A DNA stretch of 64,000 bases. Source: Bilabrum cf. latius. Its lineage: Eukaryota. The DNA lies in NCBI GenBank assembly GCA_965178125.1, contig OZ237774.1, positions 186,001 to 250,000 of the forward strand. Reading direction: 5' to 3'. A program made the position numbers and the translations under genes. Of the stretch, positions 2 to 64,000 are shown in pieces (the stretch's first letter is position 1; each line of letters begins with the position of its first letter). A model generated the notes under the pieces. That model did not search any database and had not been told where the DNA came from. It saw nothing but the letters and a program-made list of their open reading frames with translations.

Positions 2-3000
2 CCTGTGATCGACTCGATCGAGCGCTTCAACGGGGCCGGGCTGTTCCCTGCCACGGTGAGTGGCGAGCCCATCTCGGTGGACCCCATGCCCGCCATGCCT
101 CAGGACCGGCAGCTGAGCCCCGAGGGTGGAGACTACGTGGAGCTCGTGGGCCGCAACTTCGGGCCGTCGGGAGACGAGCAGCTGCTGCAGGAGGTGCGCT
201 TCGGCAACGGGGCCCACCAGTACGTGCTACCCGAGTCCGAGTACCGCATCATGACGGACCACCAGAGGATCAGGGTGCGGGTGCCCCCAGGTGTGGGTGC
301 TGATATGCGGTTCGTGGTTGTTGTGGCCGACCAGGAGTCGTCCGAGTCCCAGTCCACCGTGTCGTATGCCGCGCCCGAAGTCATGTCAATCTCGCCTGCC
401 TTCGGGCACGCGCAGCAGGACGAAGAGAGCCCCCAGATGGTCAAGGTGACTGGCAAGCACTTCGGATTCGCGGACAGCCGATCCACGCTGACCGTCAAAT
501 TTGGCCACGCTGCTGACGGCACGATGACTGCCGGTATCGCAACTACGGAGCCCATGTCTGGCACGGGTCGCTTCGAGCCTGCTGCTGGCAATGCCACGTA
601 CCCGGCCGGATATGATCGGGAGGCAGTGCAGACGGTCAAGTTCGCGCTGCCCTCTGGAGTGGGCAAAGACAGGGCGGTGGTGCTGGTCAACTCACCCGCA
701 GGCTTCCCCCAGCTGGCACTTCGCAGCGCCGTGGACGTGTCGGCCTACACGACCATGGTGACCGAGGGACCCATCAATACGTCCGTGGTGGTGACCGACC
801 CCAAGGTGTTCACCTACCAGAACCCCTCGATCGACTTCCTCTCACTGGATCCCATCGGCACCACGGGCCCGTACGCCAACCAGCGGGCCAACTTGTTCCC
901 CGGATAGGAGGGCATCAAGCTGCTGCGCGTGTACGGCCGCAACTTTGGTGCCTCGGCTCAGGAGCTCAACGACCAGGTGGAGCGTAAGGTGCTCATCGCG
1001 CCCTCGGACGACCCGTCGGACTTCTCGGCAGATACGGGCCGCGTGCAGGTGGTGGACTGGACCGACACCGTGATCGAGGTCATGACGGACGTGGACTCTG
1101 GGTTCGCGAAGGTTCACCTGGGTTCCTTCTCATACGACGGTGCCATGGAGAAGAGCCAGACGTCTCCTGCCGCCCAGTACTACGACGTGTCTCCTCAGGT
1201 GGCAGGCCTGCAGGGAGCCGACGCCTTCAACACGGCGGGAGGGGAGATCCTCGAGCTCAAGGTGGCCCGCATCGGGCAGGCACAGAGCATCCAGGTGGAC
1301 GTGGGCGGACAGCCGTGCCCACTGGTGCTACCCTCCGACCCGTCGCAGACCGTGTCCGATGCCGACTTCCCCACTGTCATCCTGCAGGCCCAGGTGGATG
1401 CCAATCCGAGCTACAACTCGCTCATTGACGCGGATAATGGAGGCATGCAGTGGGACATCGCCTGCGTGATGCCGGCTGGGCCCCGCGGTGAGTTCGTGAA
1501 CGACGGCTCGCAGGTGCCGGTGGTGGTGCAGCGTTTCTCGGCCGGCAGCGATGGCATCGTGTCTGGTCCGCAGTATATCTCGTACGCGCCTCCGTCCATC
1601 ACAGAGGTGCAGGTCTGGCACGACACGTCGGCCAACCCATCAGGACAGCCCGACGAGGTGTTCACTCCAGCTGACGGCGTGGTATACACGCCTACTCGAG
1701 GGGCCATCATGCGCATCGTGGGTGAGAACTTCGGGCTGTGCCCCCAGGTGCGCCTTGGCTTCAGCAACATGTTCGAGATGGGCGAGCAGTACCAGGACGA
1801 GTCATCGGCGTGCAGACACACGACCCAGGACCCGGCCCGCCGCAGCCGCTCGCACACCATGCTGGAGCTGCGTGTGCCCCAGGGCGAGGGCGACGGCACG
1901 GACCCGGCCCTGGGAGGCATGCCGTTTGCCTTCCGCGTGACGGTGGGCGGGCAGGACTCGCAGCCCATGGTGCACTCTCACACGCCCCCCGCCATCCAGA
2001 GCGTGACCCTCAACGGACGGCCCAGGGGACCTACCCGCGGCGGTGTGCGCGTGCTGGTGCGCGGCACCAACTTCGGCGAGCCCAGTCCGCTGCAGGTGGA
2101 CACTGGAGTGGTGGCTCAGCTGGCCGTGCACATCGGCCGCGACAGTCCTCTCTCCCAGGAACGTGCCGCCGAGCAGGAAATCACCGACACGAGCGCGCCA
2201 GGCATGCTCAACTGCTCCGACCCCGTGCGCATCCCCGCGCCGGCCAACCGCCCCGCCTACGACGAGATCGAGTGCACTCTGGCTGAGGGCACCGGCGCCC
2301 GTCTGGATGCAGTGGTCAGCGTGGCAGGCGTGCAGTCGGAGCCGCTGCAGGACGCCTTCGCGTACATGAAGCCCTCCATCACCGGCGCCACGGTGTTCGC
2401 CGCCACTGCCAGCCAGGAGGTGGTGCAGGCCGAGGACGGCAGCACGCAGGTGACTGTACGCCGCGGACCCGCGGCGGGCTTCTACGAGGTCGAGCTGGAC
2501 GGCGAGAACTTTGGAGCCAGGGACAATGACACCTCCTGCGCCTTTGTGGCGTGGCCCAACAGGGACGCCGAGGAGAGCGCGGCGCCGCTGGGGACTCGCC
2601 TGCGGAACCTGGTGTGCGACCACTCAGAGACTGTGTACGGCGAGGGCGAGGTATGGCACGGGCACGTATTGAGCTGGACCCACAACAGGGTGCGGCTGCT
2701 GATGCCTCCGGGCGTGGGCATGCGCGACATCACCCTGCGTGTGCGTGGACAGCAGCCCGAGGGCGCCATGCAGGGGCCCAAGCTCAGGGGCGTGCAGGCC
2801 GGCATCGAGGGTGTGGCGTTCCAGTACAACGACCCGGAGATCGACTCGATCGAGGCGCTCCCCAACAGCGTGTTTGACATCCCCACGGCGGGAGGGGCGC
2901 AGCTCGTGCTAAAGGGCAGGAACTTCGGCCGCGGGCCCATCACCAACCCCAATGTGCTGCAGTCAGCGGCACAGACCTTCGTGGCGGGAAGCGTGCCGCT

Positions 3001-6000
3001 GCCCCTGCACACCCCCGAGGGCGACGGCGAGCTGGACATGGGCACCAGCAGCCTGCCGCAGGGCGTGCTGCCCACGGCCGGCATGGCGGTGCAGTTCTAC
3101 CGTGCCTGCCTCTCCGTGGCGCGAGGCCTGGATGGCACCTCCCAGCTGGGCCCCGACTCGGCCGTGGCGCAGTCGGAGCTGACCGTGACGGGCGCCGAGG
3201 GCTGCGAGTCCAGGAGTCTGTGGAGCCCGGGCCAGCCCACCATCGTGCGGCACCAGGACGACGAGATCGTGTTTGTGACCCCCGAGGGCCTGGGCACAAA
3301 CCGGGATGTGTTTGTGTCTCACTTCGAGCAGAACCCGTCCGCTCGCGTGACTGACGGGGACGTGCTGGAGATCCGTAGCAACGTGCTGCTGGTGAACTAC
3401 TCGAGGCCATTCATCACGTCCGTGACTCCGCAGACCGTGGAGGTGCGCGAGCTGGAGGGCAGGCACCCCATCACCATCAAGGGCAGGAACTTCGGTCCCA
3501 CGGGATCCACCGAGGGCTGGAGCGAGGCAGAGCGCCTGTCCCGCATCCATATCGGAGCGAGGGAGTGCTTCATGCCGGGCGCTCTGCCCGAGGGAGCCCA
3601 GCGGTCCGTGGCCGAGGTGCTGGACGAGTTCACCGGGGACACCACCCAGCGGGCCGTGTTGGAGTGCCACCTGGACGCAGACACCGTGGGGCCCAAGAAC
3701 ATCACCGTGCAGGTGGCTGGTCAGCGCCGCTTCGCAGACATCACCAGGCCGCCGCTGGTGCAGGTGGTGTGCGACCGGGACTACTTCGGTCTGGAGGGCG
3801 AGATGTGCCTGCCCTGCCCCGAGGGCGGCGTGTGCGACGGCTACGACCAGTTCAACAACACGCACACCATGCCGAGGCCAATCGAGAACTTCTACAACCT
3901 CAACTCGTCCGACTCCGCCAACTTCAACATGCTGCAGGTCTGCCCGCCGGGCCGGCAGGTAGTGGCGCCCAGGCACCCGCTGGACGAGGACCAGCCCATG
4001 ATCCACGAGGGCGGGCCCAGGGACGTGTGTATCGTGGCGTGCGAGCCGCAGTGGGCGTGCGTGGGTGACAACTTCTGCGCACGAGGATATGCATCCAAGG
4101 CACCCATGTACAGGTGCGCCAGCTGCGACACGGGCTTCTACAGGCGCGCGGGCGAGTGCGTCAAGTGCCCCGACAACCCGTGGATCCTCATCGTGGCGTT
4201 CGTGCTGATGGCCATGACGGCCGGATGCGTGGGCCTGTGGCTGAACCGCAGCAAGATCAACATTGCACTGATCGCCATTGGTGTGGACTACTTCCAGGTG
4301 CTGGCCATCTTCGCCAACGCCCGCGTGAGCTGGCCCCCCATGCTCAAGGACCTGTTCCACATCCTGTCCGCCTTCAACTTGAACCTCGAGATCACGGCCC
4401 CCGAGTGCACTGTGCCCGAGCTGGCCTTCCAGACCAAGTGGTACTTCATCGTGCTGCTGCCTCTGGCCGTCATCGCCATGGGCATGGCGGCCTTCGCTGC
4501 CTTCTGGCTGTACGCTCTCTTCACCAACATGCAGAAGGACCCTAAGGGACAGCGGTACGCTCCCTTGGTGGCTGGCCTGATCGTGCTGCTGTACTTCCTG
4601 TACCTGCACGAGACCAAGACCATCCTGGACGTGTTCAACTGCGTGCCCACCACGCCGCCAGACGGTCAGAAGTACCTGCAGGCCGTGTTCGAGCCGTGCG
4701 GACAGAAGGGTGGCGTGCAGCTGCAGCTCATGCCCTTCGCCGTCATCGCGCTGATCGTGTACACGTTTGGCTTCCCCGCGTGGGTGGCCTTCATGCTGGT
4801 GGTCAACAAGGAGACCATCATGCTGGACCAGCTCAGGAGGGCCCAGGGACACGGATACACGTTCGTGTCGTCAGATCCCGAGGCCATCAAGCAGGCAGCC
4901 GCATTCCGTGTCAAGTTCCAGCGTCTGTACTATTACTTCAAGCCCGAGTACTACTGGTGGGTCATGACCATCATCGCGCGCAAGGCACTCATCGCCTTCT
5001 GCTCGCTCATGTTCAACACCAACGCGTCCTTCCAGATGGCCGCCACGCTGCTGGTCATCTTCCTGTGCTACACGCTGCAGGTCAAGTACAACCCGTACAT
5101 GCCCCCCGCCGAGTACCAGGACACGCTCATCGACTGGGCCGGCAAATCCGTGGACGAGGGTCTTCGCAAGGCCCAGGCGGACCGCAGCTCCTCGGATGCC
5201 ATCGACAAGGCCGCCGCGCAGAACTCGGCCAACCGCCGCGACGAGCTGCTGGACACCACCGGTATGGCCAGCACCGGGTCAATGGCGCGCGCCCAGCAGG
5301 ACGGGTGCGCGGGCTGCCTGCAGTCCACGGGCTCTGCCGCCTTCATCATGTGCGCTCGGTCCCCTGAGCTGTACTACTCGCTGTGGGACACGATTCGCAC
5401 GCAGGACAAGAGGCAGGATAAGGCCAACCAGAGGTCCCAGAACAGCCTCAGCAGCACGCGCATCAACGCAGCCGCCGTGGACCCCAAGGACGTGATGGGC
5501 GTGATGGGCAGCAACATGATGAACTGGAACACCGTGGAGACGGTGCTGCTGTTCTGCGCCATCCTCGTGACGCTGGGCGGAATCATGCTCGAGTCGGGGC
5601 GCTTCGACCAGGAGGGCTACCAGGACCAGCGGGACGCCATCACCATCATCCTCATGCTCATCATCATGTCATCCATCACGTACTACTTCACGGTCTTCGG
5701 GCTGGAGCTGTACATGCTGGTGACGGCCAAGGACCGCGCCCGCAGGCTGCAGCAGGCCAGCATCAAGAAGGTCAAGGAGGGCAAGGCCGCCCGCAAGATC
5801 GACGTGGACATGTCCAACGCCGAGTACAGCGCCAACCCGCTCATGGACGTCAGCAAGGCCGGCAAAGACAGTGGCGCGGAAGGCGACTCTGCTCTCCTGC
5901 AGAACATGCGCGGCATGATGGAGCTGGAGAGCCTGGACCGGCACTCGTGGGTGCGCCTCAGGGGCCAGTTCAAGGAGTTCGTGCTGTCGTACGAGGAGAT

Positions 6001-6313
6001 GTCCAAGGAGTACGGCAGGATGACCAAGGAGAGCATGCGGGCGGCGGCCAGCGGCGTGTCTCCTCTCGTGGGCGCCTCGTCCCCGCGTGTAGGGTCTGCT
6101 GGGTCCCCTCAGCTAGGCGGGTCAGGTTCGATGGGCATGAACCCCATGAGCCTGGGCATGGCTCGCGGGGGCAAGAAGAAGGAGTTCGGAAGGGCCGCAG
6201 CGTCGAGCCGCTCCCTGGGCCGGCGCAACAGCGGCCGCAACCTGCTCCTGAAGAAGGGATCCATGAGCAAGGCGGGGTCGGCCGCAACGATCGGAGTGGA
6301 GGAGAGCCAGTGA
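2..6313 (+). CDS. Large surface/receptor-like membrane protein (IPT/TIG Ig-like repeats, Cys-rich region, multi-pass TM C-terminus); 5'-truncated by the window
   Basis: ORFs 5..907 and 929..6313 share a frame and are joined by one TAG (905-907). Repeated 'GxNFG' and 'Y..P.I..V' IPT/TIG motifs, a Cys-rich stretch (CLPCPEGGVC...CASCDTGFYR...CVKCP), then several hydrophobic helices. Ends TGA. Confidence 0.8.
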
Positions 6314-7112: not shown

Positions 7113-8348
7113 TCACGATACAAGCGACGTGCTATCCCCGATGATCTCCTAGCTCGAGTGGCTGCGTGTTTCAGCCTCTTCGACATCGGAGCCTGGTACA
7201 TCCAGCGGGCCATCATCCAAATCCCCCTGCCCGGGAACGACTGCCACCGGATGCACCTGCGCACCGGGATACGCATGCCCTTGCCCCAATGGTGCATGGG
7301 GTGCGTGGACGTTGAGGTCAGCAGTATTGTGCGGATCGGTGGGATCGTTCGGCTGCTAGTCCAAGGGAGGGATCGATCCCAGCAATTCGTTCCACCAGCA
7401 GGGAAACAAGCACATGGCAACGTAAAGGTAACCCGAACCGAGAAAGCACACAAAGTACATGGACGCAAGCGCCAGTCTAAAGACGCGCTTGGTCTGCGGG
7501 CTCTAATACAAAAGGTCTACGTTCCATTGCGGGGGGTCGTTTGCCAACCCCTTCCATAGGAAACTGATGCCCACGATGGCGGCGGATCCAAGGCCGACAG
7601 CAGAAGCTAGCACCAGCATGATTACGGCACCCTTACCGATAGAACTCCGGAGATAAGGCAACAGCCTCGTATTCTGAAGCACGTTCATCTACTCACAACA
7701 AACGCACGCACAGGAGCACGAAGCAATGAGCGCTACTAGCACGCTGGCTAGACCGACTGAGTACGCAGCATCAGGCAGCCAATCTCGGAACTCGAACCAA
7801 ACATTCCCTTCCGCTCTACCAGACTCGCAATATCCCATTCCAGTATACGAATACTTTGTATCGGTCGCAAACGGGCCCCTACCGTCTACTCCATCCGGCA
7901 ATCTCCCTGCGATCGCGATCGACGAGCGTCCTCCCCTTTGCTCATCCGGGACATCCACAGGGTACTCCCACAGTGGGAAACCAGCGATTCTGGGGTCAAC
8001 TTGCAGTTGATTGTGGGTGACTCTGGCTGTCCAGTTGCCTAGTGTTGTGGTTTGGGATCGAATCAAATCGGCTGCTGATTGCCCAGTTGCACCACTGGCC
8101 ACGTCGAGAATCCATTGTGCGTACAGTATACCGGCGTCGTCGCGGCTGATAAGGTACGAAGGAAAATTCTCAGTTTCTTCTTCGTTGATAATCGTGTACT
8201 CGTGACCGACCACGCAGGATAGTTCGAGACCTTCGGCAAGACGCCTTGCGTTGATTCCCTTCACCAAAAGAACCGTACCACACGAGGCCATTGCGCACGT
8301 GACCGCAGTAAGGCAGCAGATCCGAGAATAAAGCATTGGATTGGTCAT
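7113..8348 (-). CDS. Hypothetical multi-pass membrane protein
   Basis: ORF 7689..8348 continues in frame through TAG at 7689, 7503, 7356 and 7149 to TGA at 7113-7115. The read-through part adds further hydrophobic helices (AVIMLVLASAVGLGSAAIVGISFLW; LALASMYFVCFLGSGYLYVAMCLF). Confidence 0.55.
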
Positions 8349-9208
8349 TTTCTGCTGGTAGAGACTCTGCTTGTTCTCGATCCGATATGCAGAAATTGCG
8401 TTTGGCTGCTAACTTCATCTTCATTATTGAAGATTTGACCCGGTTTGGGTGTGATACCACAGCAATCAAATGGGTGTGCGTTGCTTAGTCTAGTATGCTG
8501 ATCGTGGTAGCTCTGCGCAGTCGTTTCCTTGTGATGCAAGCACACCTTGAATTTGAGATCACACGTTGTACACAGCACCCTAATCTCGCAGACAGTCACA
8601 CATGGTTGCAGTTGGCTGCCTCCGAGAGCCCATCCTCAAAGTTACCAAAAAAGACAACTGGCGAACGCTGCCCCTCAGCGCCCGAATAGCACGCGGCTTG
8701 ATTGCCGCTCAAGTCTAATTGTGACCTCCCAACTTCCTCATCCGCATGTGGTCGGATGATCCGATGCCCCTGATCCGAGCCACTCGTCACACACATGCCC
8801 GTACCTCCACGTGCCCGGCCTGTGCCCCCCCCTTACTATCCGCCGTATCAGCCCGATGACCCCACCAATCATCTTCTCCTCCACTACTTCCTTCCCACTT
8901 GGTGAACCGCCGCCCCCTTCACTCCCCATCGCGCCCATCCCCCCCCCCCTATCCCTCGCCCTCTGTATGCTCCGCCCCCCCTATCCCTTGCCCTCTCTCT
9001 CTTTGCTCCGCCCTCAACCTCCCCCCCTTCCCCCCCAATTCCATCCGTCGCCCACCCCGAGTCGCTGCCGCTCCTGCTCTTCATCACCAGCCGATTTCTC
9101 TCTTTCCTTGTCCTCCGTACCACTACGTCGCATCTGCTCCTGCACCTCGAGCGGGTCCTGCGCACACCTCGCGACCTTAATTTTAGAGACCTTATTGGCC
9201 TCACCAAC

Positions 9209-9954: not shown

Positions 9955-12900
9955 ATGGCGCAAAGGATGCTTCACGCTCGATCGTTCGCGATGGGTTCTC
10001 GCTGGATGATTGCCTTTATTGTAGTCTTACTACTGTGCATGGTCAATGGCGAAGCATACCCGCAAGGTCCCAAAACGGGCAGCAGAGAAGAAGGCGGGTG
10101 AGCACGCAGCAGTGGTTGTGTACCAACCGCCCAGCGCTCCGTGCGCTGGCAGGATGAAGGACTTGCATAGCCCTATGGATTGGATGTCCTTTATCTTTCA
10201 CTCGCAGGTGGCTGGGTGGATCTGAATCAGCCGTTGTGGGGCCCTGGGGATCTCCTGCACCGGGCACCCGCATACTCTCCGCTTCTACTAATGTGGTAAA
10301 GGGCAGCAGCAAGATCTCGGACACCCAGGGCGGCTTCACGGGGCAGATGGATAATGATGTTCGCTTCGGCGTCTCCGTCGTAGCGCTGGGGGATCTTGAT
10401 GGCGACGGGGTGGTGGACCTGGCTGTGGGGGCAGAGGGGGACAATGACGGAGAACAAAGCAGCGGATCTGTGTGGCTGCTGTTCCTGAAGGCAGACGGCA
10501 CGGTGAAGTCGCATCAGAAGATCTCGAATACGCAGGGCGGCTTCACGGGGCAGCTGGGCTATCTTGATCAATTTGGCCGCTCCATGGCAGCGCTGGGGGA
10601 TCTTGATGACGACGGAGTGGTGGACCTGGCTGTAGGAGCACATCTCAACGATGACGGTGGCAATGATAGGGGGTCTGTGTGGATACTGTTCCTGAAGGCA
10701 GACGGCACGGTGAAGTCGCATCAGAAGATCTCGAATACGCAGGGCGGCTTCACGGGGCAGCTGGACGATGTTGATCGCTTTGGCTGGTCCGTGGCATCAC
10801 TGGGGGATCTTGATGGCGACGGGGGAATAGTCCTGGCTGTGGGGGCACCGGAGGATGATGACGGTGGCAATTCGAGGGGGTGTGTCTGGCTGCTGTTCCT
10901 GAAGACAGCCGGCACGGTGAAGTCGCATCAGAAGATCTCGGACACGCAGGGCGGCTTCACGGGGCAGCTGGACAATCTTGATTTCTTTGGCATCTCCATG
11001 GCATCACTGGGGGATTTTGATGGCGACGGGGTGGTGGACCTGGCTGTGGGGTCATCGGAGGACAATGACGGCGGCACTGATAGAGGGTCTGTGTGGCTGC
11101 TGTTCCTGAAGACAGACGGCACGGTGAAGTCGCATCAGAAGATCTCGGACACGCAGGGCGGCTTCACGGGGCAGCTGGACAATAATGATTTCTTTGGCCG
11201 CTCCGTCGCAGCGCTGGGAGATCTGGATGGCGACGGAGTAGTAGACCTGGCTGTGGGGGCAGAGGGGGACGATGACGGAGGCAGCAATAGAGGGCGTGTC
11301 TGGCTGCTGTTCCTGAAGACAGACGGCACGGTGAAGTCGCATCAGAAGATCTCGGACACGCAGGGCGGCTTCACGGGGCAGCTGGACGATGGGGATTAGT
11401 TTGGCTCGTCCTTGGCATCACTGGGAGATCTTGATGGCGACGGGATGGCGGACCTGGCTGTGGGGGCAGAGAGGGATGATGACGGTGGAGGGGCCAGAGG
11501 GGCTGCATGGATCATCTTCACGAATTACCAGAGACCCAGCCCCAGTCCAAGCGTCAGTCCCTCGCCGTCGACCACCAGCACCAGCACCGCCAGTCCCACT
11601 GCAAGCGTCAGCAGCAGCCCCTCCACGTCGCCCACGCCCTCGACCACCAGCACCAGCACCGCCAGTCCCACACCGTCGACCACCAGCACCAGCACCGCCA
11701 GTCCCACTGCAAGCGTCAGCAGCAGCCCCTCCACGTCGCCCACGCCCTCGACCACCAGCACCAGCACCGCCAGTCCCACGCCCTCGACCACCAGCACCAG
11801 CACCGCCAGTCCCACGCCCTCGACCACCAGCACCAGCACCGCCAGTCCCACGCCGTCGACCACCAGCACCAGCACCGCCAGTCCCACCCCGTCGACCACC
11901 AGCACCAGCACCGCCAGTCCCACAGCGTCGTCATCAACAACGAGCTCGTCCACCCCAGTGAGTCCAGAGAACCGCCATTGCCTATCGATACACCAATACA
12001 AGGCATAAAGCACCCACTACATACCATGCCCTGCCTACCGCTCCCGCTCCGATCCTGCAGACTCCGAGCGTCTCGTCCACGCCGACGCCTTCGCCGACGC
12101 CGTCAACCTCCAGCTCAACGACTCCTGTAAGTTTCGAGACAGACTGAATCGGTTCCTCACGCAAGCGGGGAGTCAGCCATGATGCACCCGCGAATCTTGC
12201 TTTCTGTGGCATGGGTACCTCATGCTGCCTGTTCCTCCACTCGCCGCAGTCCCCGAGCAGCAGCACCAGCCCTGTAAGACATGCCATCTAGCATGCTCAC
12301 TGGCACGATACTTGCACTGACACAACCCAAAACACCTCCACCAGGAATTGCACGTTTTTCCTCATGCTTTGCAGAGCTCTTCAAGCACACCTACCTCGAG
12401 CACGTCCCCGACCATGTCCCCAACCATGTCCCCAACTTCTTCTCCGAGCATATCCCCGAGCGCGTCAGTCTCGGCGTATGCTGCCCCAGCCGAGCCAGTT
12501 GCAGTGGTCCCGCGCCACAGGGCCACGGACGAGGCTGTCGTATGCGCCGAGGCTCCTGTAACCAGCATGGACTCCCAGCTGCTGCAGGTGGGCGTGGACA
12601 TCGCCGGAGCCTTACCCTCCGAGATCGGCTGCGCTGCGGCGGAATCGTACGTGCAGGCTGTGGTGGCCGCATCTGGTGTGGACCTGGAGGACGTGACCTT
12701 CTGGCTGGAGCCCATGGGCGACTCGGGGACGCAACTGCTGCTGCAGATGGAGGTCCGCGACGCTGCTGAGGCCAACACCCTGAATGGCCAGATCAGTCCC
12801 CAGCTGCTGGCCCCAGAGGTGCTGCAAGAGCTGACAGTTTCGGTGCCTAGCGCACAGGTGACTGTGGATGATGAGAATATTGTAGTGCTAGAGGCAGACG

Positions 12901-13133
12901 CTGGCCAAGCAGCGAGCTCCGCAGTCGTTGTATCCGACGAGGGTGATGATGTCGAGATCCCGGTCTTTATGGTCGTGGTGGTGGCAGTCTTGGGCATCGC
13001 CCTGCTGGGCAGCATCGCGATTGCACTCATGTGCTGCGAGTGCAAGGGGGCTCGACGGGAGCAGGGCAAGGCGATTGACACAGACAAGAAGATGGTCGCA
13101 GTCAGTGTGCACATGGGAGCGGAGGCTGTGTGA
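9955..13133 (+). CDS. FG-GAP (integrin-alpha-like beta-propeller) repeat protein with signal peptide, Ser/Thr/Pro mucin-like stalk and C-terminal TM helix
   Basis: Signal-like N-terminus (MGSRWMIAFIVVLLLCMVNGEA). GT-AG introns 10098-10207, 11958-12060, 12127-12249 and 12274-12374 keep the frame. Six 'FG.S.A.LGDLDGDGVVDLAVGA' units, one in-frame TAG at 11397-11399, TM segment VFMVVVVAVLGIALLGSIAIALM. Ends TGA. Confidence 0.85.
10308..11520 (+). repeat. Six tandem ~207-bp (69-aa) FG-GAP units
   Basis: CAGAAGATCTCGGACACGCAGGGCGGCTTCACGGGGCAGCTGG (with minor variants) recurs every ~207 bp. Confidence 0.95.
11561..11923 (+). repeat. Coding minisatellite, 36-bp core encoding PSTTSTSTASPT
   Basis: Tandem TCGACCACCAGCACCAGCACCGCCAGTCCCAC units, two of them interleaved with an ASVSSSPSTSPT unit. 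Confidence 0.9.
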
Positions 13134-14157: not shown

Positions 14158-14213
14158 TGCACGTTTGAAACAGTTTTATCAGTCAAAATCGTAGCGTCTT
14201 TGACCCCTCGCGC

Positions 14214-41802: not shown

Positions 41803-41968
41803 GGGTCCCTCGAAGGCTATTCAAGTAAGTGCCGATGATTTCATGTTGTGGATGCTAGCTTTATGGATCTAGCTCTTGTTTGTCACAAGCAGGAGACCAC
41901 CAACCACGCCAACTCGCTGCACACCCTTTCCATTACAAATACTGCCTATTCGCAATTTTCCGATCAAG

Positions 41969-50080: not shown

Positions 50081-50459
50081 CCTGGTGCTGTGGTCGGGCC
50101 CGTTCAATGCATCAAACTGCTTCAGGCTGGCAGGTTGCAACATTAGACTGTGAGTTTGTTGAAGGCCAGGCTTGAAGTGAGCGTGGCAAAAAGGTTCATC
50201 TAGGCCAAAATGTGAGATCCAATGTTGTCCTCGTGAACGAAGCAGTCCCACAATTGGTTTGCCTTCTAACTTAAAGTTCCATCTGGGAACCTCGGCTAGC
50301 GGTATCGACTGATCGTCTTGGAATGGCTAATCCCGGATTGAGTAGCCGCGTGTTGTTGTCAAGATCTTCATGTAAACTAGCCGGTTCTTCATCCACAAGA
50401 TCTGTTCAATTCCACTCAAGTCACGGTGGCCCGACTGTTCATCAAACATGATTCATGAT

Positions 50460-52727
<2,268 letters not shown>

Positions 52728-53697
52728 ACTCAACTCAACATGTACCCCATTCCGGGCGTCCTACGGGGCACACACCCGAACCGAGGCTCGAACACAGCCT
52801 CGTTTGCCCCGCGAGCAGCTGCGGCACACATCTTCATCTTTCACGTTGTGTACCGGTTGCAACCAAAACCTCCTCCAGCCAACGAATCGCACGCTATCCT
52901 GCAGAAGCAGATCCAGGGCCTTTTCCTTCGCGTGTGAGACTCCTTAGGCGGTTGTGTGGTTAGTATTTGTTATAAAAGTGCTGTTTATGCCGCCTCACCG
53001 CCGGATGTTGCTACTTTGGTTGAGGTAGGGTTCTCCTAGGCCCGTGACAAGCAAGCCAAAGTTATTCAACTCTTAAATGATAGTGTAACGTTTCCATTGG
53101 ATCGCCCCTCCAAGGAGGAACTTTAGAATCTTTGCAAGTTAATTGATTTCCTTGATTGTGAAGCTTGGTTGGCTCTGAGGGACGCCGGGGAACGATTTGG
53201 CAGGGCAGCCGTTTAGCCTCGAACTCCGGCTTCGGGCACCTGCTCGGGCCCGCAAGAACAGTCCTGCCGGCCGAAGGCCGATCTTTCTCAGAGCATCCAC
53301 GTTATGAACCTTTTGTGGAGGTTGGTGGCACGGCGGGGGCACATTTCGTGGCGGAAAGGCCTGCCGAGCATCTCGTGGGTGCCGCGGCCGTTTATCGCGT
53401 GCGACCGCCGAGCGTCGACTCGGGGTGCTGCCCGGCCCATCAGGCCCTCTGCGCAGCGATGTACGGCGGATTTCGTGTCACCGTATACATTTGTATCACA
53501 TCTGTCTCGGTTTGGTTGCTAAGATCTTGTATGTTGTTCGATAGTGTGTATTTGGTCCCTCTGTTGCATCTTTCCCCGCCATGGCCCACTCGTTTCGAAG
53601 CCCCTCTCGCTTTTTCTTTATCGCAGTTTCTTCCGAGGAAACCGATCGAGACTGTGTACTTGAGAAAGACATTTTGAGCGAGCGGACGCAACTTATC

Positions 53698-56600
53698 ATG
53701 AGTGACGCCACATCTTCCTCGTCGTCGGCCACCGCGGCGGCCACGGCTCCCGCAGACGCGGCCACTTCCACATCCAGTGCCATGCACCACGCCCCCGCTG
53801 GCGTGGATGGCGGGGCCGCCCCGCAGCCGCCCATGTCGCAGGCGCAGTCGGCGCACGAACAGCAACAGCAAAACTCCGCGGCGGCCGCCGCTGCCGCCGC
53901 TGCCGCCGCCGTCGCCGCCGCTGCAGCCTCGGGCCAGCAGGGGGGGGGGCAGGCCCAGGGGGGCGAGACTCAGGTGCCTGTCCCCACCTCGGGGGGCCTC
54001 CCCTCCCTGGGGATGGGCCAGCTGGCACACCACCACCACCACGCGGCCGCCTCCATGGCCATGGATGCGGTGCGCGCCTCGTCTTCCTCCCAGGCGCCGG
54101 GGGTGCCGGCCGCTTCGGGCGCGGGGGTGCAGGTGTCCATGCCCACGGAGGAACACGCTGTGACTGCCGCGCTTGAGTCTGCAGCGGCTGCGCACCACCA
54201 CCACCACCAGCAGCAGCAGCAGCAGCACCACCAGCACCTTGCGGCAGCCCAGCACACCGCCGGGATGGTGGACGCGTCCCACCTGGCCCACGCGCAGATG
54301 CAGCAGCACATGGCAGCCCAGATCGCCCAGCAGCAGATGGCAGCCCAGCATGCTATGGCCCAGCACTCGCACGCTCATGCCATGGCACAGGCAGCGGCGG
54401 CAGCACACCAGCAGCAGCAGCAGGCGGCGCATCAGCACGCGGCCGCTGCCGCCGCCCACCAGGCCCACCTCGCCCAGCAGCAGCAGCAACAGCAGCAGCA
54501 ACAGCAGCACGCCCTCAGCCAGCACCAGCACGCCGCCCTGAGCGCGACCATGAACACGCCCACGGCCATGGCCGGCAAAGCCGCGAGGGATTTCCTGGTG
54601 CACCTCAAGTCCGAGCTGGGGGTGCGACAGAAGGTCATTGCCCAGGCTCTGGGCGTGGGGCCGGGCATGGTGAGCGCCTTCATCACTGGACGGCTGGGCG
54701 GGGGCAGCGCCATCGTGCCGGCTGTGCAGGCACTTCAGAACGACCAGGTGAGGCTCGCGGCACTGCGCCAGGGGAACCCCATCGAGCCCATTCAGAAGAT
54801 CAACACGCGGAGGGGGAGACCGCAGGGGGGAGGGTCGGCGCCTCCCGACCCGCGGCCGCCCCGCCGCAAGCTCATGACCAAGAAGATGCAGCAGCACCAT
54901 CACCAACAGCAGCAGCACCAGCAGCAGCAGGCAGCCGCGGCGGCTGCCGCGGCACACGGCCAGATGGGCATGGGTGCAGTGCACGGCGATGCAGCCGCGA
55001 GCGCGGCGGAACATGCCGCCGCCGCCACGCTGGCCGAGACCCTTGCCAGCAACTAGAGCACCGGGCAGCAGAGGCAGCAGGCGCAGCAGGCGCACGAGGC
55101 GGCCGCTGCGGCGGCACAGGCGGCAGCGGCACACACCCAGTCGCACTCGCAGCAGCAGGTGGCTGCCTCGGGGCAGGCGGCTGCTGACGCGGCGGCCGCG
55201 GCGGCAGCCGCCGCCGCCCGTCAGACGGGCGGCGTGCAGGGCGGCAAGGCCCCGTCTTCCTCTTCCTCCTCCTCCTCCTCGTCCTCTGCGTCATCGGGGG
55301 GGGTGCGCGGGGGCACGTCACCCGCTCGTCGGGCTGGGCCCCGCCCCCGGCAGGCAAAGCCCCCTAAGCTTGATGACAGAGTCGCGGTGCGGCGGGCGGC
55401 GCTGCAGCTGCGGCAGCAGATGAGGCAGCTGGGATTGGACATCGGTCCATTGCTACCCGTGGAGGCGGCTCTGAACGAGGACGGGCAGGGGGGCGCGCAG
55501 GCACAGGCCATTGAGGTCGCGCGACTGGCGGCGCAGGGCAGCGGATAGGCGGGGGCCGGGGCGGGGAACAGCGCGGCAGCAGCCTCGACGGCGGCCGCCG
55601 CCGCCGCCGCTGCCGCCGCCGTTGCCTCCGGAGCGCAGGCGCAGCAGCACGGGGGGAGTTCTGGCTCCGGATCCGGTCAGGGAGGCGCGGCGTCGGCCTC
55701 GCAGCAGCATCAGGCGGGCGATTCAGACGACCTGGTGCGGCGGCTGGAGCTGCCCCCAGAGCCGCCGGCGGAGGACCCTCAGGTGCTGCGCGACTGGGCG
55801 AGGGCGTGGGCGGATCAGAAGGGCATCCTCCAGTGGGAGCTGGCGAGGGGGGCGGCGGTGAGCCGGCCGCTGATCGCAGTGTTCGTGGCCGGTCGGCTGG
55901 GGGCGGGCTCGGTGGCGCATCGCCGAGTGGCTGCACTCAAGGCGGACCCTCTGGCCATCGCGACCACCGAGCTGGTGGCCGCTGCCAGGAGGGAGTACGC
56001 AAGCAACCGGGCGGGGAGGCGTGACTCGCTGCAGCGCAGGAAGAAGAACAGCCCGTCCGTGGGACCAGCGGGGAGCCTGGGGGGCGTGGACCTGTCGCAG
56101 GCGGCGGCGGGGGTCGGGGGAGTGCCGGGCGCACCCCCGAGGGTGGGGGGCCCGGTGCTGCCGCCCAACGCATCCCCCGCCTCGGCGCAGGGACTGCTGG
56201 CGCTCTTCAAGCCGCTGGCGCCAAGCGCGGCCGCGGCGGCCGCCCGGCGAGGGAACAGCGTCGCACGGCAGTTCGTCTCGAAGCGCAGCAACCTCGGCGA
56301 CGTGGTTGTGCCGGAAGCGAGCGAAGCACACATCAAGGCGGAGCAGGCGAGGACCTTCGCCCTGTCCGTGCTGGGGCAGGACTACAGCCGGAACGGAGGC
56401 AAGACGCAGAGGGGGGCGCACGACGGGCTGCCCGGAGGTGCGCCGGCGCTGCAGGGCGGAGGCAAGATGAGGCCCAGGCTCAAGGACTTGGCCAACGCGG
56501 CGCAGGTGCTGCCCGCCTCGCTGAGCGCCTTCCTGGCTGGCAGCATCGGGGTCAAGAGCAAGTGCGTGGGGCAGCTGCTGCAGCTGCAGAACGAGGTGCA

Positions 56601-56979
56601 GCAGCTGGGCGGCGACTCTCAGGAGGTGGTGCGCAGGCTGAGCGAGCAGCGGGGGGAGCAGCGGAGGGGGGGGCCTCCGGGGCCCAAGCGCGCCCAGCAC
56701 TGGAACACGCCCGCGTCGGCTGGGCAAGCACAGCAGAGCGCGCAGGGCGCGGCCGCCGCTGCCACGGCGGCTGCCATGCACATGGCGGCCGAGCAGCGGC
56801 AGCAACAGCAACAGCATATGCTTGGCCAGAAGCGTGGGCGCGCGGATGGTGAGTCGGACGCCTCCAAGCGAGCGAGGACGGACGGCGACATGGCCTCGTC
56901 GTCTTCCGCGGCGGTTGCCGCCGCGGCCGCGGCCGCCGCAGCCGCGGCCGCTGTGACGGCAAGCAACGCCGGTCGGTGA
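53698..56979 (+). CDS. Ala/Gln/His-rich putative transcription regulator with three HTH-like repeats and an AT-hook
   Basis: Same-frame ORFs joined by TAG 55054 and 55546. PolyQ/H/A tracts; three related segments QKVIAQALGVGPGMVSAFITG, QWELARGAAVSRPLIAVFVAG and LKDLANAAQVLPASLSAFLAG; RRGRP. Ends TGA. Confidence 0.72.
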
Positions 56980-58146: not shown

Positions 58147-58860
58147 TTATAAGGTGAAAATCGCGAATGACATTCTAGAGTAGTCTAGTAAGCACCAGCG
58201 TACTTGGTACCTCATACCTCGAATTTCGCACTGCATCCCTTTTAGCAAAGTCGCTTTGGTCGGGCTGTGGGTTTGCCTGATTCAGGGTTTGTTCGTTCTG
58301 TTCCGAGAGGCTATCGTTCGCTCAGAAAGGCGCTGCATCCAGCCAGGCGTAGGCATCAGCTTGTGTGAGTTATCTTGCATTCAATAGGCGAGAGAAACAC
58401 CCTTTAGTTGCCCTAGATGCCTGTCGTGACTGAGTAAGTAATTGTCGCATGAGCGCATGGGACCTGTGCCTCGGGTACCACCTGGCACAGGCTCAGTGTA
58501 GCTGCTGTGCGCTTGGTCTGTATTGAAGCTGCCGTGTATTTCTTGTAGTTGCTTCTGACTTGTAGCTGGTTGTGCAAACTTCTTCGCTCGGCCTCGCAGC
58601 TCGATCTCATGCGGGCAGTTAGACGCTTGCAAGGAGCAGCCACAAGGCCGGGAGCGCGGATGGTCCATGATTTTCGCTGCTCCCCTCGTTTGCAGTATGT
58701 CATGTCATGCGGCACGATGTCGTACGGAAGCTGGGTTCGCCCTTCAGCGGGCGTGCGCTTTATGGCAGGCGACCGAGCACTGCACTCATGCATAATTGCA
58801 AGGGAAGAAGGGCTCGCTGGCGATCAGCAGGTCATATTGAGTGAGCAAGCACTTCCGAAG

Positions 58861-61659
58861 ATGGAAGATGTCCTGAGTAAGGCCAGCACTGCCCTGAATG
58901 ATGCCATGATTTCTATGAATGAGGCCAGGAGTGCTGTGGATAGGGCCGACTAGGTCGTGTATGCTGCTGCCGAGGACATTCGCAACGCCAAGACGGACGA
59001 TGAGCGCGCCGAGGCCAGACAACGCGAGCTCAACGCCATGTAGCAGCGAGACAATGACGAGTAGCGGTATGAAGAGGCCAAGCAACAGCAAGACAAGGCC
59101 AAGCAGCGGTATGAAGAGGCCAAGCAGCGGTATGAAGAGGCCAATAAGGACGCCCAAAACATGTTCGCCAAGCAGCGAGAGCAAGCCATCGCGCTCCGGG
59201 ACTGCATCCCGTCCGAGCGAACATCGCAGCACGCCCGAGCACTGGCCTCCATGATCAAGAAGGGCGAGGAGGACCTCCAGAGCCTCGAGTACCAGCGAAG
59301 GGCTCTGCAGCTGCCGGGGCTTGAGACGCCGCTGCCGTACGTCTGCACCACAGATATGAAGATGGCAGCTGGAATGCTGTTCGTGCAGCGAGTCGGCCCA
59401 AGCATCGACCGCTTCAAGGACGCCGTGAATTATGTGTCGCGGGCTGATAGTCCTCAGGAGCGCCGCGTGCTTGTGGTTGCCCAGGCCTCAGGCTCGGGAA
59501 AGACCAAGCTCGCATACGATGTGTCCGTAGATTCGAGCATCATGTCGGTCGTAGCCACTGCCGCCAAGCCCAAAGCTACAGGATTATCCCATCCTTTCGC
59601 TTGGCTAGCACGAGCCGAGCCTGAGCTTCGCGAAGCCGAGGTCCCGCATGGGGTCAAGAACGAGACTGAGCTCCTCAAGGTATTTCGCGGTTACCTGTTC
59701 GTGGTGGTGCTCGCCGCTCACATAGAGTGGGCGGCCCACGTTGCAGAAGCCCTGCATGCGCTTGAGCCACGGCAGCGGAGCCAGGACGATGTCAACCGAG
59801 CCATCCTGAGGGCAACAGCCAATGGCATCGGTCAGCCCGGCATCGCGTAGGTCGTCAAGGAACGCCTTGCCGGTATCCCGCACATACACAAGGTCGAGAA
59901 CTTGGCGCTACTGGGTATCTGGGCAGAGCAGTACGTGCAGACGGCAAAGAAGAAGCTTCAGGGCGCGCATGGGGCTCTGCTTGGGGATGCAGCCGGGGCC
60001 AACCCTCCGTCCATATTGGTGACTATTGACGAGGCCCCAAATCTCATGCAGCAGCACTTCAACACCGGTGAAGAATCAAGCACGAACTGGCTGCGTGGTG
60101 CAGCTTAGGCGCTGGCTGTTATGACGGAATAGAACGTTGCGAGCTGCGTGACAGGCACCTTCTTCGAAGTGTCAAAGTTGCTGGACGACTCGTTGTCGCC
60201 CCTACGGGGCCGCACCGAAAGGTTCAACCAGGTCGTGAATATAACGTCGGCTGACCTGTGGCACGATCTGCTGCGCCGCCATGTGCCGTCACTGCCAGAA
60301 GCAATCCCAGCCAGTCTCGAGGCGGGTCTGGAGCGGCTGGAGGGGCGGCCGATCTTCTTATTCGACCGGCTTCTCTTGACAGCGTTGGATGACCTGGTCA
60401 TGTCTAAGCCCCACACGAGCGAGTCCGAATGGCCGTCTGACATTCAGGCTATCAAGGACCCTTCGGCGCGCCGCTTGGCGGGATTCCTGTACTCACGCCT
60501 CGACTCTGCCTGGGAATCCTCGGTGGCCACCATGGTGGAGCGGATCGAGAAGTTTGTCGCGCCCACCTAGGACACCGGCAAAGACGATAGCTACCTTCTG
60601 CAGCAGCTGCTGCAAGGCGTGTTCTTCAAGGGCGGTCAGCTCCCTGTGCTGACGGCGGACTACGGCAACCGCAAACACGATAAAGACAACAAGGCCATGG
60701 AAGATGCCGTCAGGCATGGCGTGCTCGTCTACGACCCGACTGGAGAAGGGAGTGTGCTGCAGGAGCCCGTGACAGTGGAAGCTGTGCACCGGGTGGTCCG
60801 AAAGCGCTCGCTAAGGAGGGATGTATATGAGGACGAGTGGCTAGAAACCACAAGACGCGTGGTGGCTAACTGGGAGTAGGCGAAAGGGGATGTGTTCGAG
60901 CAAGCCTTTGTGTGGATGCTACTCCGCGCATGCAATGCCCATGATGACGATATGGAGCTGCAGGATGCTTTGGCTGGTGTGGTGCCAAATGGATTCGTTT
61001 TCCCGAAGAGTGTGAGGGGTAAGATCGTGAAGATCACGGGAGCTAGTCCTGTCCCGGAGGTCGGCGATGGCAGCAAGATGGACGACTGGCGTGCAATGTC
61101 CAGCATGAGCACAATCTGGTATGGCTTCCACCAAAACGCTGGAATGGACCTAATGGTGCGCACCACGGACGGCACAGTGATCGGCGTGCAGGCCAAGTCG
61201 GGCAAAGTTGACCTGGCAGACGCGGTGGCCAGCTGCAGCCTTGGTTGGCAGTACTTCTCTAGGAAGCCAATCGCGAGCAAATCGAACACGTTTTTACGGA
61301 AGCCTGGTGACTTGCGGCGATGGTTTCTTGATCATGCTCCTATCGCGGCGGGCGGGGAGCATCTGCGGCTGGTGTTCTCCGTGAAGGGCTTCAGCCCAAG
61401 CGCCGTGGATGCCGCGAATGCCTACAATGAGCTGTACCCTCAGTCTGCCATTCTGCTGTGCCAGTCGTCGGACGCGGTGCTCGGACCTTTGCATGGGGCT
61501 CTGGCAGGTCTTACCGACGTCACGACGGTTGACTTTGACCCTAGCAGTGCCGCAGCGGCGCTGATGGTACACCAGGACGTCGGTGGGAAGAACGGGCTTC
61601 AAGGCGCGGGGCAGTCTTTCAGCGAGTGGCTGGCGGAGGAGAAGAAGGGGCGAAGGTGA
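58861..61659 (+). CDS. Crinkler/RHS-effector-like protein: coiled coil, P-loop NTPase, PD-(D/E)xK-like nuclease
   Basis: Single frame with 8 TAG (58951, 59041, 59062, 59848, 60106, 60130, 60568, 60877). Walker A ASGSGKT; Walker B ILVTIDEA; KGDVFE; GMDL...IGVQAK. Ends TGA. The start could lie further upstream. Confidence 0.7.
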
Positions 61660-61959
61660 GGCGGAGTGTAGGCACGATCTAGATCTGGAATCCAGATTGA
61701 GTCATCCCTCTAGGTCTTCATCCGTTCATGTGTTGCCATGGTAGAGTCTAGACCTGTCAGGATTCTGTAAGTCTATGGCATACTATTGGCATTTGTCCAA
61801 GTTGCTCTTTGCGCACCCGTGCCCCTGTTAGCACTATTGGACTCCCCTGGATGGCTTCAAATTCAGCTCCCGCCGTGTATCGTGCCTATGAGATAGGAAT
61901 CCATGTGATCCACCTTGGGTCAGTCGCCTTCCTGGACCTGCCCAAGGAGAGTATGCAGG

Positions 61960-62215
61960 TGCGGATGAGGCGGGGGTGACTGCGGGGGAGCCAAGTTGCC
62001 GTGATGAACGCGCTGCGCACGCTCGTGCCCGACGATCGGTTCCAGGTGCAGGGCACCGCCAACCTGCTCGAGTCCACGGAGCTGGCAGCCGAGGGCATGC
62101 TGGTGTTCTTCAACGCGAAGGCCGTGATCTCGATCGCGCTGTGCTTCTTCGCTGCGTGGCTGATTTTCTCTGCGACTATCCGTGAGAACTCGAGGGAGCT
62201 GGGGGTGCAATGTAA
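61960..62215 (+). pseudogene. Fragment resembling an FtsX-like permease domain
   Basis: FFN..AVISIALCFFAAWLIFSATIRENSRELGV resembles the FtsX 'xRExxxExGvlr' motif. Truncated on both sides. Confidence 0.4.
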
Positions 62216-62267
62216 ATCCCGTCTTTCTCTTGCACAGTGCGCATCCGTCTAGATTTAGAATTCTACT

Positions 62268-62316
62268 TTGCCTAAGTAGGCCGTAACATCGATGAGATAC
62301 GCCATCCCCTAGGGTG
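62268..62316 (-). mobile_element. Short second remnant of the same RLE retroelement
   Basis: TTGCCTAAGTAG..CCGTAACATCGATGAGATACGCCATCCCCT matches 57651-57707 and encodes AYLIDVT on the minus strand. Confidence 0.6.
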
Positions 62317-63245
62317 CTCGACATGACAACCCCGTGTTTCTAAATTGCATCGAGAGTGTCACATAAACAGAATACAAAATTGTGAGGTTGAGGTAATGAA
62401 TACATGAATTGATTCGGCTCTTTCCTTTTATTTATTCCGTTGGTAACACTAGTAACAATCTAAAGATCATGTTGTATTGTCTTCGTAGTTCTTAAACAAG
62501 CAGATAAATCAAACAAAATTTCAAATTCCTTTGTTTATCTGCGTTGGTAATTACATAGCAAACGACAAATTATATTATACAGAAAAGGCAGATATTTAGG
62601 CGTTTACTTCAAAATGAAAGGAGGAATAGGCGAGACTGTAAGGGGAACAATAGACTTGAGGGTCCAGTTTATTGATGATAATTAATTGAAAGATGTATTC
62701 TGACATGGTAGCGAATAGGTAGAGGCTCGCAAATTCAAAGTCAAAGTCGGCCACAACCAATGCAGGCCAACAAATCCAATCTATTTGATGAATTTATCGC
62801 TTTGATATATTTTATCGTCATCAAACTTTTACCTTCTGCTAGCCTTCTTGCAATACTAGTTCTCTTTGGCAATAATCGAGCTTCCCATGTCATCCAAGCT
62901 GTTACTGTGCACCGCCTTGGTTTGGCTGTGGTACCACTGGGGCTCTTGGAGTCTGCAGCTCGATATTCTCTCGCGCACATTCCTTTGCTCCTACCTAAAG
63001 ATTAATTCCGACCGCTTCATGTTCTATGCCTGTAATGGGCAAATCGGCATTCGCCACCGCCCCTACATCTGCATCCACTGCTTGTTGCCAACATTTTTGA
63101 AGCGAGTTCCCATTTCAGATAGTCAAGTGTGTATTTAGATTTTGTAGATGCTATTCGGTAGTTTTCGGAATGAAAACGATTTGAATCACATTTTGGTCGC
63201 CTTGAACCAGACACAAGCATAATTGATTCAAAACATCTTAAGAAT

Positions 63246-64000
63246 TCAATTTTCACTACCTTCACGTCGTTTTTTGGCCTAACCGCCACCCTAAGGCAAA
63301 TCAGCTTCTTCACGCGATCGTTTCTTGCTTTCTGCAGACTCTGCGCTGTCCTTTAGCTGAGTTTTCACCTCGCCACGTTCTACTGCAGTAACACCATCGA
63401 ACCATTGATGATCAAGACAATCCTGAGCTGATATTCTTTTGGAAGCATCGGGACAAAGAAGTTGCCTAACAAGATCTTTAGCGTCGAGAGACACTGATGA
63501 CCAGTATTTCGAAGGGAAACTCCACTTGACACCCGATCCCAGCTTGTTGAGTGCCTCGTCGCTGAATGGAGGTCTACCTGACAATACAATGTACATGATG
63601 ACTCCAACTGACCACATATCTGCAGACAAGCCATACCTCCCGGCACCAAAGTGAGTGTCTTTACGTTCCAATACTTCTGGAGCAAAATACTGCGAAAAAA
63701 AGAAAAATTTATGAAATTTATTAACAGTTTATATACAAGAGGAAACATGAATTACGTAGAGAGGGCCTTTGTGCTCGCTCACCTGTGGAGATCCAACATA
63801 AGTTTTGAGCCCTTCGAACCCCAAGGTTCTTGCTACACCAAAGTCTGCAAGAACCGGCACCGTATCACAAGCTGGGTCTTCACTAGCAAGCAAAATGTTC
63901 TCAGGTTTCAAGTCCCTATGCATGATCTCCCGGTCGTGAAGATATTTGACAGCATCCAGAATTCCTTTCATGAGAACTTTTGCTCTGCTTTCCGGGTATG
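63246..64000 (-). CDS. Ser/Thr protein kinase, CAMK group (CHK2-like), C-terminal part
   Basis: HRDLKPENILL; ADFG; GSPQ|YFAPE across GT-AG intron 63690-63782; DMWSVGV; RISA. TAG at 63291 and 63279, then AKKRREGSEN-TGA at 63246. Confidence 0.9.

Follow-up and report, generated by a model that had tools for sequence, protein, structure and literature searches.

In NCBI translation table 15, the "Blepharisma" code, TAG encodes glutamine and TAA and TGA are stops. Table 6, in which UAA and UAG both encode glutamine, is used by many ciliates, hexamitid diplomonads, some ulvophycean green algae, Streblomastix, and Amoeboaphelidium. According to the excerpts of two reports that were consulted, UAG alone has moved to glutamine in Iotanema spirale, a fornicate in which UAA has not been reassigned and is the predominant stop and eRF1 carries a GTS-to-GGS change (PMC5304391, PMC9161772). 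A third report, in the sections consulted, describes UAG-only changes to glutamine in Protocruzia tuzeti and two phyllopharyngean ciliate lineages and lists other UAG-only changes in the rhizarian exLh (leucine), Scotinosphaera (serine), and the ciliate PL0344 (UAG as glutamate, UAA as lysine) (PMC11687900). The subject of this study is a stretch of 64,000 nucleotides from contig OZ237774.1 (positions 186,001 to 250,000), referred to here as the window, in which many genes are interrupted by in-frame TAG codons. We are highly confident that the window is GC-rich, intron-poor nuclear DNA of a protist whose cytoplasmic UAG encodes glutamine, supplying about 6% of its glutamine codons, and whose UGA is the working stop. 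The code deduced is that of table 15 and of I. spirale, apparently in a lineage with no report of it. A code with UAG as glutamine and UAA not reassigned is already known from I. spirale and some ciliates; what is new is apparently the lineage.

The window shares its deduced codon table, with UAG alone as glutamine, with I. spirale, but UAA is the main stop there, whereas all 12 credible genes of the window end in TGA and its GC content is 64%. I. spirale is a metamonad, whereas single-gene trees place the window weakly with stramenopiles. In the UAG-only ciliates, UAG is likewise glutamine and UAA stands apart; however, the window is a 64-kb multigene contig with coding on both strands, high GC, canonical introns, and no affinity to ciliates in trees. 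Its contig is presumably unlike phyllopharyngean macronuclear DNA. As in the table 6 lineages, glutamine has captured a stop codon, presumably by way of a tRNA-Gln whose anticodon differs from CUG at one base, but in-frame TAA is absent from the window where about 6.6 would be expected. As in the window, nuclear UAG and UAA have separate meanings in exLh, Scotinosphaera, and PL0344; the amino acid is another one there, whereas all five informative sites of the window give glutamine. A full-text literature search, with supplements outside its scope, returned, in the article text it covered, neither a stramenopile nor any GC-rich organism outside the ciliates with UAG reassigned in its nuclear code. 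This agrees with the original prediction, made from the sequence of the window, whose author was aware of no such case described from a GC-rich genome with genes of this style. A description of the organism's code may be in preparation, and the public runs discussed below date from 2025.

GC content is about 64% across the window, which is gene dense with both strands coding when open reading frames (ORFs) are delimited by TAA and TGA alone. Pfam families were assigned to eight proteins, and four other long ORFs have no Pfam family. The presence of spliceosome genes and of a verified GT-AG intron indicates that this is eukaryotic nuclear DNA. Homology delimits spans totaling 6,676 codons in six of the eight proteins, whose genes are as follows.
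Positions 10158 to 13133, forward strand: FG-GAP repeat protein (Pfam FG-GAP), with one TAG at 11397-11399.
Positions 22352 to 31795, reverse strand: DHX29/DHX57-like DEAH-box helicase, a single ORF of 3147 codons ending in TGA, with 12 TAGs (first bases 30976, 28432, 28081, 26968, 26908, 26872, 25351, 24847, 24268, 23380, 23338, and 22930).
Positions 32699 to 38470, reverse strand: ORF of an ABCC/MRP-type ABC transporter (Pfam ABC_membrane twice and ABC_tran twice), ending in TGA, with in-frame TAGs at first bases 37981, 37945, 36115, and 34744.
Positions 40792 to 41802, forward strand: Nudix hydrolase (Pfam), ending in TGA, with TAGs at 41194-41196 (within the Nudix domain), 41596-41598, and 41779-41781 (7 codons 5' of the TGA).
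Positions 44369 to 50080, forward strand: SF3B3/RSE1 gene (Pfam RSE1 first and second propellers and CPSF_A), ending in TGA, with TAGs at 48044, 48047, 48479, and 49181, all four within lineage-specific inserts.
Positions 44369 to 44695, 44696 to 44863, and 44864 to 50080, forward strand: exon 1, GT-AG intron, and exon 2 of SF3B3.
Positions 50460 to 52481 (ORF to 52943), reverse strand: class II lysyl-tRNA synthetase (LysRS; Pfam tRNA-synt_2), ending in TGA, with a single coding TAG at 50862-50864 and motif 3 downstream of it; 120 homologs were retrieved.

Reading TAG as sense lengthened the five longest ORFs from 1801, 1112, 847, 680, and 635 amino acids to 3147, 2686, 2103, 1923, and 1790 amino acids. 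ORF lengths were nearly unaltered when TAA was read as sense, and reading TGA as sense gave a longest ORF of just 1802 amino acids. Within the homology-bounded codons, the coding frame contained 17 TAG, 0 TAA, and 0 TGA, versus 54 TAG, 9 TAA, and 256 TGA in the two off-frames pooled. Thus, the coding frame shuts out TGA and TAA, which is how stops would behave, and it admits TAG.

In all, 62 in-frame TAGs were counted in 13 TAA/TGA-delimited ORFs: 52 in the ten longest ORFs, 2 in the gene for the splicing factor PRP38, 3 in the Nudix gene, and 5 in a candidate membrane-protein ORF, the tally covering ORFs up to about 61.7 kb of the window. The original prediction had put the number at about 60 in 14 genes on both strands; the two strands and the approximate number stand, and the number of genes is replaced by 13 ORFs. 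Seven of the 62 probably lie 5' of the start codon (ABCC codons 4 and 55, at 38461 and 38308; LysRS codons 61 and 121; codon 79 of the Gln/Ala/His-rich protein [polyQ], at 53542; codon 32 of a 1068-codon ORF [u1068], at 58546; and codon 2 of the membrane-protein ORF [TM433]), and another seven sit in a doubtful ORF at 41969-43861. Credible coding sequence (11 ORFs, 15,854 codons) contains 46 TAGs together with 590 CAG, 85 CAA, and 0 TAA codons, so that TAG makes up 46/721 of the glutamine codons. TAG is scarcest in the gene with the strongest GC bias at third codon positions (GC3), that of the TIG-repeat protein, where there is 1 TAG versus 112 CAG; this is the behavior to be expected of a minor synonymous codon. 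The GC content at each codon position around each TAG was also considered and was dropped because low-complexity sequence made it too noisy.

In the recognizable genes, homology extends beyond the TAGs, as had been claimed. The tRNA-synt_2 match of LysRS spans codons 333 to 801 and encloses the TAG at codon 694, with catalytic motif 3 beyond the TAG, and the CPSF_A domain of SF3B3 (codons 1552 to 1747) lies downstream of all four TAGs (codons 1113, 1114, 1258, and 1492). Both ABC_tran domains of the transporter, that is, both nucleotide-binding domains, follow the TAG at codon 786, across which bovine MRP1 aligns without a gap; the alignment of the transporter to MRP1 structures has an E value of 1e-297. 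The helicase ORF, for which 120 homologs were retrieved, carries the Pfam domains UBA_DHX29, DEAD, Helicase_C, HA2, and OB_NTP_bind, and its TAGs at codons 2149 and 2317 are placed between the DEAD, Helicase_C, and HA2 domains, splitting the helicase core at the two points predicted. Every coordinate named in the prediction was right (905-907 on the forward strand and 50862-50864, 36113-36115, 25349-25351, and 24845-24847 on the reverse strand). Alignment is gapless through three TAGs, which are listed here with their counterparts in a second helicase locus (L001) and a library protein (P0248), both described below.
Positions 25349 to 25351, reverse strand: TAG in the helicase core, context PGLAEI-TAG-RLRD; also TAG in L001.
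Positions 24845 to 24847, reverse strand: TAG at the start of the HA2 domain, context PPEEEAV-TAG-ASLQ; CAG (glutamine) in L001.
Positions 36113 to 36115, reverse strand: TAG in transmembrane domain 1 of the ABCC protein, context LTA-TAG-KAFVSLSLFNILRFPL; glutamine in P0248 and in bovine MRP1.

Comparison with close relatives indicates that the amino acid encoded by UAG is glutamine. L001 (1,698 nt) was the only locus with the helicase core in a scan of metagenome contigs. Its protein is 84.8% identical to the helicase core of the window (478/564 columns) and its DNA 72.8%, and a differing codon is used at 269 of the 478 identical residues, so that L001 represents a different species with the same code. 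Its matching frame contains 0 TGA, 0 TAA, and 4 TAG and is open only when TAG is sense, whereas the other two frames contain 10 and 16 TGA or TAA stops. Five TAG columns can be aligned between the window and L001: one is TAG in both, and four pair TAG with CAG, three with the TAG in L001 and one with the TAG in the window. The three window codons that are CAG opposite a TAG of L001 in the codon alignment are as follows.
First bases 25258, 24445, and 24436 (stretch 24434 to 25258), reverse strand: window CAG, L001 TAG.
The full glutamine-codon table (window/L001) is CAG/CAG 9, CAG/TAG 3, TAG/CAG 1, TAG/TAG 1, and CAG/CAA 1, and glutamine is involved in only 4 of 81 other differing columns. P0248 (372 amino acids), the nearest relative of the ABCC protein in the public protein library and 81% identical to it, adds a fifth site. 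Glutamine was therefore found in all five informative comparisons with close relatives (four from L001, one from P0248). P0248 is a 372-residue piece of a transporter expected to have about 1,900 residues, a size that fits a standard-code gene call broken at TAGs of the relative's contig.

Could UAG be sense and yet specify a different residue (glutamate, lysine, serine, or leucine), in the manner of other UAG-only lineages? TAGs often lie within acidic runs, and a naive Bayes classifier trained on neighboring residues put Asp/Glu first for them. It was rejected, because in leave-one-gene-out trials it recognized true glutamine sets in only 33 of 300 cases, mislabeling them in most. MAFFT set the LysRS TAG on a column that is leucine in 96 of 120 homologs; this placement is an alignment artifact, since the ungapped match of PVADRFELF to the GLTERFELF-type motif puts the TAG within an insert, and the site was discarded. 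At the helicase column 25349-25351, lysine, serine, and threonine dominate the 120 homologs (K54 S28 T22 R8 Q6 N1 M1), and of the eight top-ranked homologs listed, three (P0122, P0124, and P0127) have glutamine. The column at 24845-24847 is mixed (D30 K21 E16 A13 T9 S9 Q8 and others among 120), as is the ABCC column at 36113-36115 (A51 E25 Q20 S16 D9 G8 N8 T6 K4 P1 and 2 gaps among 150 representatives). Against these distant signals, the five comparisons with relatives 81 to 85% identical all give glutamine or CAG and none gives GAG, AAG, TCG, or TTG. We therefore consider a residue other than glutamine very improbable.

The TAGs recur in independent data. The segment 44708-52943 is present in eight public runs from four studies, and across 41900-52943, the region to which the run comparison was limited and outside which the helicase and ABCC TAGs lie, contigs from four runs of three studies showed zero differing letters. 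The run data are assembled contigs, not raw reads; their RNA labels are guesses, and none of the runs listed for 44708-52943 is recorded as RNA. One contig of run X5 (record 11) nevertheless matches 44376-44691 and then 44860-46070, skipping 44692-44859, which equals 44696-44863 when a repeated GCAG is allowed for. The skipped piece begins with GTGAGA and finishes with CTTACTGTCCGCAG, making it a canonical GT-AG intron, and its removal fuses an exon starting at the in-frame ATG 44369 to the SF3B3 ORF (44708-50080). Since it is spliced at a canonical intron, this contig is derived from RNA. Other X5 contigs (records 13, 14, and 15) run unbroken across TAGs 48044, 48047, 48479, 49181, and 50864; record 15 covers 50385-52790 with no difference. 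TAG 49181 is also covered by contigs of X6 and X7, as is 50864 (records 22 and 27). The LysRS contigs of X5 to X7 have near-identical ends (50385-50441 and 52749-52790), whereas the DNA run continues past them. The run that contains the spliced contig also retains TAGs in its other contigs, which argues against the removal of TAGs by splicing or editing. With five coding TAGs in contigs of X5 to X7, there is good, though not final, evidence that UAG is present in mature mRNA. Presence of TAG in RNA, which the original prediction had wanted confirmed in reads, is thus supported for these five sites in contigs.

These contigs bear on the possibility that the TAGs are never translated and reflect assembly errors, pseudogenes, in-frame introns, or RNA editing. 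Most TAGs do fall in low-complexity inserts, where homology cannot prove translation, and the runs were seen only as contigs. However, no letter varies among four runs from three studies across 41900-52943, which speaks against assembly error, a finding that would have undone the original prediction. Three TAGs lie within ungapped conserved blocks, essential single genes (SF3B3, LysRS, and PRP38) carry TAGs, and a species 27% divergent in DNA keeps its frame open with TAGs of its own. In-frame TGA is 0 versus 256 off-frame, and the X5 contigs retain the TAGs. We regard untranslated TAGs as having next to no probability. The central claim of the prediction, that this nuclear genome reads UAG as sense, is supported by TAGs inside conserved domains and by their identity in the contigs of four runs.

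Use of TGA as the stop was seen in all 12 credible genes, including SF3B3, LysRS, and ABCC, whose conserved C termini end at TGA. As had been claimed, no recognized gene needs TAG as its stop, and UAG does not appear to serve as a terminator in the genes of the window, although these are a small sample. An ambiguous code, in which UAG is glutamine inside genes and a stop near some 3' ends, as in Condylostoma, karyorelict ciliates, and Blastocrithidia, would account for the Nudix TAG located 7 codons ahead of TGA and for three helicase TAGs beyond the last conserved domain. Yet the run free of TGA and TAA after the last TAG extends for 191 codons in the helicase and 414 codons in a low-complexity protein, whereas TGA or TAA makes up 1 to 2% of codons in the off-frames, and LysRS contigs from three runs finish about 75 nt beyond the TGA. 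Together with the 12 TGA stops, these observations leave the ambiguous code a slim chance.

The status of TAA rests on absence alone, because no credible gene here ends in TAA. A table 6 code, with UAA and UAG both encoding glutamine and UAA hidden by GC richness, is compatible with this, since TAA is never seen working as a stop; moreover, CAA is itself rare (85 versus 590 CAG), so TAA is expected to be rare. Were TAA and TAG used in the CAA:CAG ratio, however, the 15,854 codons should include about 6.6 in-frame TAA, and none was found (Poisson P about 0.001). TAA is likewise 0 in the homology-bounded codons versus 4.5 per off-frame and 0 in the 565 codons of L001. If TAA is read as sense, no ORF gains length at its 3' end and no two coding ORFs fuse. 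A table 6 code is thus unlikely, and TAA is probably still a stop, or nearly unused.

With UAG as glutamine and UGA as stop, decoding can be pictured by analogy with other UAG-reassigned eukaryotes, namely Iotanema and the rhizarian exLh, the source of the mechanism because the window contains no tRNA gene or eRF1. A tRNA-Gln whose anticodon, CUA, differs from CUG by one base would decode UAG. The eRF1 of this organism would no longer recognize UAG and would keep its recognition of UGA, and UAA would most likely remain a stop or be nearly unused.

Several points weigh against this reading. A tRNA scan found 0 tRNA genes in the 64-kb window, Rfam gave 0 matches there, and the eRF1 gene is absent from it, so the decoding machinery itself is unseen. 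The runs are contigs with a guessed RNA label, and X5 is marked "probably DNA," RNA being shown there by one spliced contig only; the other X5 contigs may be of DNA. Only five sites are informative against close relatives; a sixth column (TAG 24268) pairs with CTC in L001, in low-complexity sequence where the alignment is unreliable. Distant homologs do not single out glutamine, and the discounted classifier favored Asp/Glu. Finally, the Nudix TAG nearest the TGA could be a stop under an ambiguous code, and TAA closes no credible gene.

The organism is only weakly placed. The best named matches to LysRS are 34 to 54% identical over partial lengths, those to the helicase are 41 to 51% identical, and no close named relative was present in the protein collections searched. 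Placement was based on two single-gene FastTree trees. In the helicase tree, the window and L001 fall in an 11-row clade (SH-like support 100) with two diatoms and environmental rows; in the LysRS tree, the window is sister (support 94) to a thraustochytrid and environmental rows, adjoining oomycetes. These trees weakly suggest that the organism is a stramenopile. On this basis we put forward, tentatively and as a possibility that we do not favor, that this would be the first stramenopile case of a stop codon reassigned in the nucleus and that UAG-only reassignment to glutamine would have arisen independently here, shared by at least two species near synonymous saturation, with UGA effectively the only stop, UAA near unassigned, and GC pressure rather than AT pressure having freed UAG.

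Nuclear code changes are rare, and genomes in which UAG and UAA differ in meaning are rarer (a rhizarian, Iotanema, Scotinosphaera, and a few ciliates in the article texts covered). A further case, probably of independent origin, in a GC-rich, intron-poor genome with UGA as its stop would test whether AT-driven codon loss is needed for such changes. It would also provide a second system outside the ciliates whose eRF1 has to separate UAG from both UAA and UGA, and the change is old enough to be dated by comparison, because the code is also found in a relative whose DNA diverges by 27%. Gene callers that assume the standard code will cut short or break up most genes of the organism and of its relatives, and reannotation with table 15 is needed.

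The remaining ORFs of the window are as follows.
Positions 2 to 6313, forward strand: IPT/TIG-repeat membrane protein (Pfam), its 5' end beyond the window, ending in TGA.
Positions 905 to 907, forward strand: the single in-frame TAG of the IPT/TIG protein, the gene with the fewest TAGs and the highest GC3 (0.88).
Positions 7113 to 8414, reverse strand: candidate membrane-protein ORF, unnamed, with 5 TAGs, ending in TGA.
Positions 14169 to 22229, forward strand: low-complexity ORF of 2686 codons with no Pfam family, ending in TGA.
Positions 15414, 15807, 17448, 18624, 20217, and 20982, forward strand: the six TAGs of the low-complexity ORF.
Positions 38959 to 40425, reverse strand: PRP38 splicing factor (Pfam), its first 30 or so residues elsewhere, ending in TGA.
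Positions 39511 to 39513 and 39208 to 39210, reverse strand: the two TAGs of PRP38, within its low-complexity tail.
Positions 41969 to 43861, reverse strand: doubtful ORF of 630 codons with 7 TAGs, the sole ORF of the set ending in TAA.
Positions 53308 to 56979, forward strand: Gln/Ala/His-rich protein with no Pfam family, with TAGs at 55054 and 55546, ending in TGA.
Positions 58453 to 61659, forward strand: ORF of 1068 codons with no Pfam family and 9 TAGs, ending in TGA.

The doubtful ORF has about as many TAGs in frame (7) as in either off-frame (10 and 10). The tail of PRP38 contains a long GCAGGA-type repeat at 39579-39702, which forms a (Gly-Ala)n run, and a PSAPMGP repeat of seven copies nearby. 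The Nudix TAG was compared with solved structures and fell on an asparagine of Arabidopsis Nudix hydrolase 1; the match was weak and was not used.

In the 3' part of the FG-GAP gene, 11950-13133 contains GTGAGT and GTAAGT donors and two or three apparent small exons. We infer that small exons and introns join the ORF at 10158-12008 to the one at 12321-13133, which ends in TGA. The TAA at 12006 that closes the first ORF is flanked by a GTGAGT donor and a CAG acceptor, i.e., it is intronic. The extension would add a stalk rich in Ser, Thr, and Pro, followed by a membrane anchor and a short tail, with the TGA at 13131, and the extended product would be an integrin-alpha-like surface protein.

The 1068-codon ORF had no homolog at an E value of ≤0.001 among proteins of 560 to 1784 residues. 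Its sequence includes a P-loop-like motif (GSGKT) and, at the C terminus, a D...QxK pattern that may resemble that of a PD-(D/E)xK nuclease. Its TAG density is second only to that of the doubtful ORF, and its GC3 is lower (0.70). This ORF may belong to a mobile element or be specific to the lineage. The GC content of the window drops to 51% at its right end (60001-64000), where the ORFs are short and contain several TAGs; the span of UAG reassignment originally given for the window ended here, at 63293. Two ORFs beyond 61.7 kb had no Pfam match.

A 10-mer, GTGACGAGTG, mostly occurring as GGTGTGACGAGTG, is present in 29 copies in the window versus 0.15 expected. Examples are as follows.
Positions 18345, 19920, 20928, 21102, 28555, 30178, 30265, 30283, 35557, 37093, 41572, and 48269: copies of the 10-mer.
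It also occurs in antisense at position 151 of L001, and its flanks are not conserved. Copies in genes are mostly on the sense strand and read Val-Thr-Ser, so that a GVTS peptide recurs in six or more proteins; a few others lie in antisense or between genes. No sense copy was seen in the other stop-free frame, in a listing that covered the VTS frame only. The copy at 48269 is crossed unspliced by an X5 contig.

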